This document shows positions 26,995 to 28,807 of a DNA stretch of 64,000 nucleotides, in pieces. The translations under genes and the position numbers were made by a program. The stretch covers positions 25,067-89,066 of IMG/VR virus record IMGVR_UViG_3300045988_003641, one strand, 5' to 3'. The first letter of the stretch is position 1, and each line of letters opens with the position of its first letter. Under the pieces are notes generated by a model, which worked only from the letters and a program-made list of their open reading frames with translations, was not told where the DNA came from and made no database searches. Origin of the DNA: a virus (lineage: Duplodnaviria; Heunggongvirae; Uroviricota; Caudoviricetes).

Positions 26995-27368
26995 CCATCC
27001 TTCCATACCACACCTCACCCAACCATACCATGCCTTACCAGACCGCACCTTGCCTCATTAAAAGACCCTCTTAAAAGACCTTTTAAAAAGGTAAGTCTCA
27101 TTTTAATGTAGCTGAGACTAACTACCCGCACCGAACCTCACCTGACCTGACCGCGCCATACCTAACCGCGCCTTACCACACCTCACTTAAAAACCCTATG
27201 AGATACTCTATCGAATATAATTTAAAGACTCTTAAGTGATGTAATCGAATTTTTATGTAGCTCCGATTAACTACCCGCACTTTACCAAACCTCACCCTAC
27301 CCTACCAGACCTTACCTAACCGCGCCGTACCTCATTAAAAGACCCTCTTAAAGACCTTTTAAAAAGGA
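26995..27368. repeat. structured intergenic repeat array A (3 modules)
   Basis: three ~60-bp C/A-rich tracts (26995-27057, 27128-27187, 27277-27334) alternating with a TTAAAAGACC-containing motif (27057-27091, 27187-27241, 27335-27368) and hairpins (27094-27119, 27243-27268) each followed by AACTACCC. Confidence 0.85.
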
Positions 27369-27383
27369 GCCTCCGAAGAGGCT
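27358..27383 (-). terminator. rho-independent terminator of two-gene cassette
   Basis: minus strand AGCCTC-TTCG-GAGGCT then CCTTTTT. Confidence 0.6.
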
Positions 27384-27394
27384 ACCTAGTCAAC

Positions 27395-27835
27395 TTAGAA
27401 AGGTTTTCTACGTTGCTTGTTAATGTTAGCTTTCATAGCAGCTAAATGGTTTTGCTGTTCAATTAGTCGTGAACGTTCTTGATGGCTAAGTACCATAGTG
27501 TTCACATTCTCAATCGCTTGAGTGGCTTGCTTTAAAGCACGACCAATCTTACCAGACATTTTACGTTTTGCAATAGTTGCTTGATGCTTAGGTTCAACCA
27601 CACGATAACCAACACCCATTGAAGCAACCAGATAAATCTTCTCTTCTTTAAGAAGCTTCTCAATAAACTTCTCAAGTCGATTTAAGCGTGTAAGTGCGTA
27701 AGCTTTCATTTCATCTTCGTACTTAACAATGTCACCTTGATAAGTTGGCTTCACAATACCTAAGAAGGTATCCATCTCAGAGTGTGATACAGTGTCACCG
27801 TAACTAAACTTTGCTGCTAATGCTTTTGTATTCAT
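27395..27835 (-). CDS. hypothetical protein (cassette gene 2)
   Basis: 146 aa, basic C-terminus; no motif recognised. Confidence 0.4.
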   Translation of the reverse strand: MNTKALAAKFSYGDTVSHSEMDTFLGIVKPTYQGDIVKYEDEMKAYALTRLNRLEKFIEKLLKEEKIYLVASMGVGYRVVEPKHQATIAKRKMSGKIGRALKQATQAIENVNTMVLSHQERSRLIEQQNHLAAMKANINKQRRKPF

Positions 27836-27837
27836 AA

Positions 27838-28440
27838 TTAAACGTTACCTTCTGAAATAACTTCTACAGAAAAACGACCAAAGCGTGGACGCCAATCACC
27901 TACACCACAAAGGTTACCAGCATTTTCCAGAACCATCAGAAGTTCCTCTCTGGTGATTTGCTCTTCATCGAACATCAAACCAAACTCTACAGACCAGTCA
28001 CGGAAGATTGGACGGTAACTCATAACTCGTGCTGTACCAATCTTAACAGACTTAGCATAGATAAAGTCTGGATTCTTAGCAAGTTCTTGTGGGTTTGCTG
28101 GACAGTTCTTGATAGTCATTGGGAAGACTACATCTGTCAGCATAATGGCTCGGTCAATTACCTTACCAAGTTTGTTGAGTTTTGCACCAGACTTGATACA
28201 AGCCTCAATCATCTCACCGTTCATAACAAAACCTAACTGCTCATCGTAGTAACAGGAAGTTACTAGTTGGCTTTCTGCTAAGAGCGCATAGTCTTCGTCA
28301 GTCTTTTTACGTTTACTGGACAGAGACTTGTGATATTTTGTCAGAGGGTTTAATGGGTCTGACAACGTATCGTTATGGCTCAAGAAAGGACGAGTACCAG
28401 TGATTTTGATATTTAACAGTTTCATAGCATTTAGCTCCAC
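27838..28440 (-). CDS. hypothetical protein (cassette gene 1)
   Basis: 200 aa; glycine-rich C-terminal motif [14 protein letters not shown]; no confident family assignment. Confidence 0.4.
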
Positions 28441-28520
28441 ACTTTAGTTGATTGTTAAGTTGTTTGTAAAGAACCCTCAACAGAAGACTCTTTAGAAACT
28501 TGGTAGATTTTTAACGTGGA

Positions 28521-28807
28521 TACTACCATCCACCCATACCGTGCCACACCACACCGGACCGTACCATGCCCAACCCTACTACACCAGACCTTATTAAAAG
28601 ACCCTCTCCAAAGACCTTTTAAAAAGGTAAGTCTCATTTTAATGTAGCTGAGACTAACTACCCATACATTACCGCACCATATTATACCCTACCCCACCAT
28701 ACTTCACTGCACCGAGCCACGCATTACATCACTTAAAAAACCTTTTCAAAGACTCTTAAGTGATGCTGGTGAGTACCCGTTGGTTTATGCTGCTCAGTAT
28801 ACTCACC
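28521..28807. repeat. structured intergenic repeat array B (2 modules)
   Basis: C/A-rich tracts 28521-28590 and 28664-28731; TTAAAAGACC motif 28591-28627 and hairpin 28628-28663 near-identical to array A copy 27057-27127; second hairpin 28768-28807. Confidence 0.85.

Follow-up and report, generated by a model that had tools for sequence, protein, structure and literature searches.

Repeat arrays around a two-gene cassette of a Felix O1-like phage very probably form a type II VIPR locus of the SUSP1 clade

What purpose is served by two arrays of repeated intergenic modules that bracket a pair of small genes in a phage genome? The question is raised by a 64,000-nucleotide stretch of viral DNA (the window; IMG/VR record IMGVR_UViG_3300045988_003641, positions 25,067 to 89,066), the source of which is a Felix O1-like phage (Felixounavirus) with 92-95% identity to many E. 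coli and Salmonella phages. An earlier note, made from the sequence alone, had offered three candidate roles for the arrays: a replication origin with iterons, recombination sites of a mobile cassette, or a processed non-coding RNA. The present analysis indicates that positions 26970-28823 on the minus strand are very probably a type II VIPR (Viral Interference Programmable Repeat) locus of the SUSP1 clade and likely an anti-satellite weapon. The locus is composed of five vrRNA genes, two upstream and three downstream of an operon of vipr and presumed vap1. The third candidate role was right in kind, as the modules are ~100-nt guide RNA (vrRNA) genes. The observation is real and unique in the window, but the system is already known.

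The type II VIPR assignment was made because both cassette proteins match Vipr of Escherichia phage SUSP1 and the product of the open reading frame (ORF) next to it. The 195-aa protein was found to be identical at 190 of 195 positions to the entry "SUSP1 Vipr protein" (PDB 36pp, E 1.5e-127), which is above the 90% identity to SUSP1 Vipr that delimits the SUSP1 clade. A profile built from its family, which is unnamed and has at least 519 members, matched one solved structure, again 36pp (E 2.5e-80). The residues named as functional in the structure paper (H17, K33, E71, M72, R138, D177, W178, and R179) are all present. The AlphaFold2 model of Vipr had a pLDDT of 95, and its best PDB folds in a Foldseek search were Csm3/Cas7 (E 5e-6). 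The 146-aa protein showed 98.6% identity to the ORF located directly downstream of vipr in SUSP1, and its gene is presumably vap1 because the operon description in the VIPR preprints fits its position. Its family comprises 3 clusters only among 5.8 billion proteins and is confined to this phage group. No Pfam or PADLOC match was obtained for it, and the single-sequence AlphaFold2 model was all-helical and of low confidence (pLDDT 68), too uncertain for a fold search; with a low-confidence model and no family match, a DNA-binding function of this protein was not confirmed. Pfam, PHROGs, and PADLOC gave no function for either cassette protein. Both genes of the cassette called by the earlier note are real; the second, listed as a 200-aa ORF (27838-28440), starts at the ATG at 28425 and not at the GTG at 28440.

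VIPR was described in two bioRxiv preprints of April-June 2026 (10.64898/2026.04.26.720920; 10.64898/2026.04.26.720927). Vipr is a minimal RAMP with an RRM core, a G-loop, and a thumb, its SUSP1 clade being defined by >90% identity to SUSP1 Vipr, and vrRNAs are RNAs of ~100 nt with 9-16 YNNGG repeats and a structured tail (10.64898/2026.04.26.720920; 10.64898/2026.04.26.720927). Vipr protomers assemble, one on each repeat, into a helical filament in which GGY is sequestered, and the NN dinucleotides pair with double-stranded DNA, every third target base being skipped, which results in transcriptional repression (10.64898/2026.04.26.720920; 10.64898/2026.04.26.720927). Expression of vrRNAs, their co-purification with Vipr, and target repression have been shown for SUSP1 and P. 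fulva, and 18 of the 20 SUSP1-clade vrRNAs with identifiable targets aim at a satellite in E. coli genomes (10.64898/2026.04.26.720920; 10.64898/2026.04.26.720927). VIPR has also been proposed as ancestral to the CRISPR RAMPs (2026 preprints).

The modules reported by the earlier note between 26995 and 28807 were confirmed, with a measured spacing of 149 and 128 nt, and the block at 27057-27127 was found to recur at 28591-28663 with 69 of 73 positions identical. A 140-nt repeat (27003-27142 and 28539-28678) shows 83% identity. The tracts described as C/A-rich are indeed present, but they follow a strict 5-nt periodicity and their functional strand is the minus strand. Five tracts (approximately 26995-27056, 27126-27185, 27275-27329, 28526-28592, and 28662-28726) carry a period-5 NNNCC pattern on the plus strand, with 8-12 in-phase CC per 60 nt. 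The uniqueness claimed for the arrays within the window was borne out: outside the five tracts, the phase scan of the 64 kb peaked at 6 in-phase CC per 60 nt, the repeated motif TTAAAAGACC occurs in exactly four copies (27058, 27071, 27335, and 28594), and AACTACCC occurs in three, every copy lying inside the arrays. The equivalent GG pattern on the plus strand was absent from the same scan. Read on the minus (gene-sense) strand, the tracts are (YNNGG)n, i.e., GGY/NN, with 10-13 units each. Three tail types (A, A', and C) and two leader types (M and B) make up the repertoire of elements in the window, and the sense-strand order is P1 after the ligase gene, a leader (B or M), a tract, a tail (A/A' or C), and sometimes a U-run. 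The features of the locus are as follows.

28796-28823, minus strand: sigma-70-type promoter P1 (TTGACA-16-TATACT; 11/12 consensus), directly after the ligase stop and heading the upstream array; kept in all related loci and in SUSP1
28727-28765, minus strand: leader B, as read from the sequence a hairpin with a 10-bp A/U-rich stem (CATCACTTAA...TTAAGTGATG), preceding v1; the same element precedes SUSP1 vrRNA1
28621-28726, minus strand: vrRNA gene v1, with tract 28726-28662 (13 units, GG kept in 8)
28661-28626, minus strand: A-type tail of v1 (hairpin AGUCUCA/UGAGACU, pseudoknot GUAGU/GCUAC)
28625-28621, minus strand: U-run of v1
28589-28620, minus strand: leader M (AAAAGGTCTTTGGAGAGGGTCTTTTAATAAGG), holding the TTAAAAGACC motif, homologous to leader B, before v2
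28501-28588, minus strand: vrRNA gene v2, with tract 28588-28534 (11 units)
28533-28501, minus strand: C-type tail of v2 (hairpin UGGUAG/CUACCA, pseudoknot GUGG/CCAC)
28441-28470, minus strand: promoter-like site (TTTACA-18-TAAAGT; 9/12 consensus) ahead of vipr; phage ASO1B has an annotated promoter at the corresponding site
27838-28425, minus strand: vipr, 195 aa, RAMP (Cas7-like) protein
27395-27835, minus strand: presumed vap1, 146 aa, so called from its position and its identity to the SUSP1 ORF
27361-27383, minus strand: intrinsic terminator AGCCUC-UUCG-GAGGCU, then CC and U5, after vap1
27330-27360, minus strand: leader M ahead of v3
27242-27329, minus strand: vrRNA gene v3, with tract 27329-27275 (11 units)
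27274-27242, minus strand: A'-type tail of v3, with the type A loop and pseudoknot arm, a stem differing by compensatory changes, and no U-run
27181-27241, minus strand: leader B' (hairpin TCACTTAA...TTAAGTGA with a long loop) ahead of v4
27085-27180, minus strand: vrRNA gene v4, with tract 27180-27126 (11 units, GG in all)
27125-27090 and 27089-27085, minus strand: A-type tail and U-run of v4
27053-27084, minus strand: leader M ahead of v5
26970-27052, minus strand: vrRNA gene v5, with tract 27052-27003 (10 units)
27002-26970, minus strand: C-type tail of v5 (hairpin UGGCAG/CUGCCA, pseudoknot AAGG/CCUU)
26923-26951, minus strand: sigma-70-type promoter (TTGACA-17-TATTTT) driving the gene at 26878-26495, the downstream boundary and outside the VIPR locus; here, too, ASO1B has an annotated promoter at the corresponding site

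The order of elements in the SUSP1 locus was found to be that of the window: P1, leader B, tract, and C tail, then vipr and the downstream gene, the terminator, and the modules of M or B leader, tract, and tail. The two systems share the site after the DNA ligase gene, P1, the B/M leaders, the YNNGG tracts, the A/C tails with a pseudoknot, and the satellite target class, along with the 97% identity of Vipr and 98.6% identity of the accessory gene product. They differ in that SUSP1 is a Suspvirus and the window genome a Felixounavirus, and that SUSP1 (Vipr, vap1, and vrRNA1-4) has four guides (1 upstream and 3 downstream), whereas the window has five (2 and 3). The NN sequences of the guides are also different, v1 of the window is partly degenerate, and the window has an A' tail variant without a U-run, with leader B' directly after it. 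A Vipr protein, an adjacent accessory gene, YNNGG vrRNAs, a structured tail, and targets read with a one-base skip without self-targeting, the features of a VIPR locus that can be read from sequence, were all found. The earlier note had named correspondence to a known element of understood function as the outcome that would speak against it, and since the arrays represent a VIPR locus, such a correspondence does exist.

The grammar of the guide tracts was evaluated on 74 unique tracts from 27 related loci. The Y position was a pyrimidine in 100% of the units, G1 was G in 81%, and G2 was G in 98%, while the entropy reached 1.91 bits at N1 and 1.89 bits at N2. Among the relatives, tract length was a multiple of 5 in 86 of 89 cases, with 9-19 units per tract. 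Comparison of 22 IMG/VR relatives showed the flanking elements to be almost invariant and the tracts wholly different in sequence and length, yet kept in the 5-nt register. The type A/A' tail hairpin carries the invariant loop GCUACAU. In the A/A' tails, 99% of the cells pair, and three stem pairs are changed on both sides between A and A'; in the C tail, the pseudoknot alternates between AAGG/CCUU and GUGG/CCAC (two compensatory pairs) and one stem pair is changed from C-G to U-A. Slid controls were only 25-51% paired. These compensatory changes lend moderate support to a conserved tail hairpin and pseudoknot, moderate because independent change events are few. The M and B leaders are homologous, each being able to fold into an A/U-rich hairpin, and one is placed before every tract. 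Leader M holds a direct repeat of GGTCTTT(T)AA and possibly a weak promoter (TTAAAA-17-TTTAAT), a reading by eye that was not called by the promoter scan.

The targets of the guides were traced through E. coli genomes. BLAST of the locus against complete E. coli genomes gave short vrRNA-like matches in 50 chromosomes, one of which led to a ~12-kb island encoding a large serine recombinase, a baseplate protein, a tape-measure protein, and an HNH endonuclease, together with a long unannotated region. This satellite is integrated either in a DUF72 gene (between yecD and yecN) or at tonB-yciI and was found in 568 of 5,426 complete E. coli genomes; an example is that of E. coli EC12 (NZ_CP070229.1, L172:4848-16919), with further variants in loci L173-L184. 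No Vipr homolog was detected in the satellite islands sampled. Thirteen satellite variants were scanned with our own gapped matcher at a threshold of ≥80% NN match. When one base was skipped per unit, 48 of 71 guides from related phages reached this threshold, as against 0/71 with no base skipped, 0/71 with a skip of 2, and 3/71 with a skip of 3. The 1-nt skip code was thus independently reproduced. A first scan on the single satellite L172 had given nothing significant, and the matches appeared with the 13 variants. The best match of each guide of the window was compared with those of 1000 shuffles.

v1: 23/26 NN positions, 0/1000 shuffles as good, satellite tape-measure gene
v2: 17/22, 69/1000 shuffles as good (not significant), no target identified
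v3: 21/22, 0/1000 shuffles as good, intergenic, upstream of a ~235-aa gene, in 6/13 satellites
v4: 20/22, 0/1000 shuffles as good, satellite serine recombinase gene
v5: 18/20, 1/1000 shuffles as good, intergenic region shared with v3

Where a satellite is matched by both v3 and v5, ~33 bp separate the two sites, which are situated 50-145 bp ahead of the ~235-aa gene. A search of the window revealed no self-target. As four of the five guides match the satellite island, the locus is most likely a phage weapon against a satellite that parasitises it. The mismatches of v1, v2, v4, and v5 are almost all located in the last 1-4 tail-side units, the 5' units being perfect; this bias may reflect polar recognition of the target or a gradient of tolerance. 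By analogy with SUSP1, Vipr would polymerise on each vrRNA, one protomer per repeat, with every GGY sequestered, and the presented NN dinucleotides would pair with double-stranded DNA read as NNxNNx..., one base being skipped per unit. The filament and the R-loop triplex would block transcription of the target, and the guides would in this manner silence the satellite parasitising this phage.

Several points weigh against this interpretation. The mechanism would be carried over to this phage by orthology to the 97%-identical SUSP1 system, and the source papers are preprints. No significant target was obtained for v2 among the 13 satellites, and exact-pattern scans of IMG/VR and GTDB genomes with v2 gave one chance match each. 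The target assignments are incomplete because only 13 of the 568 satellite-bearing genomes were sampled. In v1, the GG is degenerate in 5 of the 13 units (TG, AG, AG, AA, and TG), and since GGY substitutions are reported to abolish silencing (10.64898/2026.04.26.720920; 10.64898/2026.04.26.720927), v1 may be a weak or decaying guide, or the degeneracy may be tolerated. The role of the M and B leaders (promoter or processing signal) and that of the accessory protein are not explained by the VIPR assignment.

Class 1 CRISPR-Cas backbones (Cas7/Csm3 on crRNA) resemble VIPR in the RAMP fold, the G-loop, and the thumb, in agreement with the best folds of the Vipr model, and also in having one protomer per fixed guide length, periodic base flipping, and a variable guide capped by a conserved handle. 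However, the period of VIPR is 5 nt (3 sequestered and 2 pairing) as compared to 6 (5 pairing) in CRISPR, its target is read with one base skipped per unit, and VIPR has no repeat-spacer array, adaptation genes, protospacer adjacent motif, or nuclease and is encoded by a lytic phage. In a CRISPR array, identical direct repeats of ~23-47 nt are interspersed with unique spacers of about the same length, and cas/adaptation genes are usually close by. Such an array was rejected for the window, where the unit that recurs has 5 nt, 3 of them fixed, and pentamer tracts lie between the ~70-nt conserved blocks of leader and tail. Nor was a cas1/cas2-like gene detected, the neighbouring genes being without Pfam matches.

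The related phages are polymorphic for the cassette, which bears on whether the arrays are chiefly recombination substrates that move the two genes. Of 21 related loci, 12 carry the vipr-vap cassette and 9 (Felix O1 and 8 others) lack it, and the number of modules varies from 1 to 5. The comparison of arrays and cassette among relatives suggested by the earlier note showed that cassette-less genomes keep a hybrid array in which the outer half of one is joined to that of the other. This recalls the PeSL (promoter-early stem-loop) cassettes of T4-type phages, in which repeated intergenic promoter/hairpin modules flank accessory genes and show presence/absence polymorphism. PeSLs differ in having no pentanucleotide guide tract, cognate RAMP protein, or decoded targets. 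Recombination as the main function leaves the GGY/NN periodicity, the conserved tails, and the decoded targets unaccounted for. Moreover, the nucleotide identity of the cassette (97.3%) is close to that of the flank (96.0%), a comparison for which the ungapped ligase alignment is unreliable, and there is hence no sign of recent cassette sweeps. A primary role as recombination sites therefore seems very unlikely; the delimiting of a mobile cassette, the second role offered by the earlier note, is a side effect at most and not the function, and the cassette polymorphism is most plausibly a consequence of having guide genes in tandem.

In Felix O1 (NC_005282.1, L005:2501-2782; also L006, L019, and L011), neither cassette gene is present and the array is a single 273-282-bp module of P1, B leader, degenerate tract, and C tail. 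The degenerate tract gave no significant satellite match, and the module looks like a decaying remnant of recombination between two arrays. Relatives also carry one of two alternative insertions of ~150-240 bp between the ligase stop and P1 (L009:1923-2160, L012, and L020-L022; L007, L016, L026, L027, and L042), one of which codes for a small hydrophobic ORF; both are missing from the window. In several genomes, the ligase gene is divided among at least two annotated coding sequences.

The location of the locus amid genes for replication and nucleotide metabolism favours an origin of replication, with iterons bound by an initiator or with G-rich R-loop transcripts exposing GGT(C) sites for a T7-gp4-like primase. 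All the genes around the arrays are on the minus strand, the neighbours being as follows.

26495-26878, minus strand: gene of a 127-aa protein, the next gene beyond the array after a 516-bp gap
28830-29966, minus strand: DNA ligase, separated from the vipr ORF by a 389-bp gap
31591-34320: DNA polymerase

The transcript strand is also strongly G-rich, and a strong promoter reads into the tracts. An iteron origin has several near-identical repeats of 17-22 bp, a cognate initiator, and an AT-rich unwinding element and is indispensable for replication. In contrast, the repeat units of the present arrays are hypervariable between phages that are 92-96% identical, whereas iterons are conserved; Felix O1, with its one degenerate module, and other relatives replicate although their arrays are largely or wholly missing; the genes next to the arrays include no initiator, the associated protein being a Cas7-like RNA-binding RAMP; and the NN positions decode to foreign DNA targets. 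The iteron origin considered by the earlier note is unsupported on these grounds, and an origin of either kind is extremely unlikely.

The ~11 triplets with 2-nt spacers recall the TRAP site in the B. subtilis trp leader; TRAP sites of Bacillus trp leaders are (G/U)AG triplets with 2-3-nt spacers, and the likeness consists in a triplet and a free dinucleotide repeated ~11 times in a single-stranded RNA bound by an oligomeric protein. There is hardly any chance that the tracts are a platform or sponge for a TRAP-like or other host RNA-binding protein, or two-tetrad G-quadruplexes, regulating termination at the hairpin that follows each tract, sometimes with a U-run: no TRAP-like protein was found with Pfam, the repeat number is 9-19 and not fixed, the cognate binder is known with a solved structure (Vipr, a helical filament with one protomer per repeat), and the NN positions hold target information. 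VIPR differs from TRAP in that the information resides in the spacer dinucleotides, the protein assembles into an open helical filament whose length varies, and the outcome is the targeting of DNA and not attenuation. An RNA-polymerase pause array (G-10/Y-1/G+1), a boxA-like antitermination signal (GGUCUUUAA), a Shine-Dalgarno sponge, Chi-like sites, a TRAP-like ring binder, an R-loop/primase-site origin, and two-tetrad G-quadruplexes were all dropped as they leave the hypervariable NN and the co-occurring RAMP unexplained.

With the locus taken as VIPR, the residual novelty is small and consists of the target map of this phage and of guides that occur without vipr. Some Felix O1-like phages that lack both vipr and its accessory gene (L007, L013, L017, L022, and L026) still have one or two vrRNA genes in intact form, each with 11 in-phase GG. 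The complete genome of Salmonella phage BPS17W1 (NC_042097.1, L185:43862-44285) has two intact vrRNA genes and no Vipr homolog in a hidden Markov model search at E ≤ 10. For such orphan guides, 87-91% of the NN positions agree with the satellite. Three of the 14 satellite loci sampled (L171:14916-15140, L172:14886-15110, and L178 at about 10300-10520), one of them a remnant island, carry a vrRNA unit of their own, in which a vrRNA of 14 units with a C-type tail stands between a TTGACG-17-TATAAT promoter and a strong terminator; all three loci share one guide, save for a single pyrimidine (Y) position. No convincing target for this guide was found in the sampled satellites or the window (best 23/28, outside the island). 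A tentative and rather unlikely idea is that orphan guides load onto Vipr brought in by another phage, co-infecting or helper (guide piracy), or serve as decoys titrating the Vipr of a rival; alternatively, they may be remnants of recent deletions.

Annotation of this region is sparse. The relatives bear only the labels "repeat_region," "DR_4," promoter, or terminator in GenBank, where the cassette features are called "hypothetical protein" or "repeat_region," and the Felix O1 genome paper does not mention the repeats. The Rfam search suggested by the earlier note, run with Rfam 15 on 26500-29200 at E ≤ 10, gave no meaningful match, and 13 other VIPR-type loci gave none at the gathering score; a vrRNA family is still lacking from Rfam 15. 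A scan of IMG/VR at the DNA level for six consecutive GGTNN units gave 120 loci; a Vipr homolog is encoded in 30 of them, in most cases with the end of its gene directly at the start of the array. Much longer GGYNN tract arrays with locus-specific punctuation were observed in unrelated IMG/VR phage contigs (L074:(-)3396-3843, L086:2217-3307, L095:(-)11519-12040, L072:3331-5318, L092:226-990, and L101:(-)7531-7824). Examples are 7 tracts of 64-nt period separated by GGCTAATGG and 13 tracts separated by AAGGAATGGTTTAATGAATTTAATT; in another layout, one tract is placed ahead of each small gene. Most of the long arrays immediately follow the gene of a distant Vipr homolog and have packaging genes nearby, and these loci are probably other VIPR types.

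VIPR loci will keep surfacing as unexplained repeats, pending an update of these resources, because Pfam, PHROGs, PADLOC, and Rfam do not recognise them. The plain DNA pattern of six GGTNN units nevertheless retrieves VIPR loci of several architectures from viral metagenomes, and both the skip-1 code and the satellite target class can be recovered by sequence tools alone. The window adds a natural VIPR instance with five guides to a major recent discovery, that of RNA-guided DNA recognition with a noncontiguous code.

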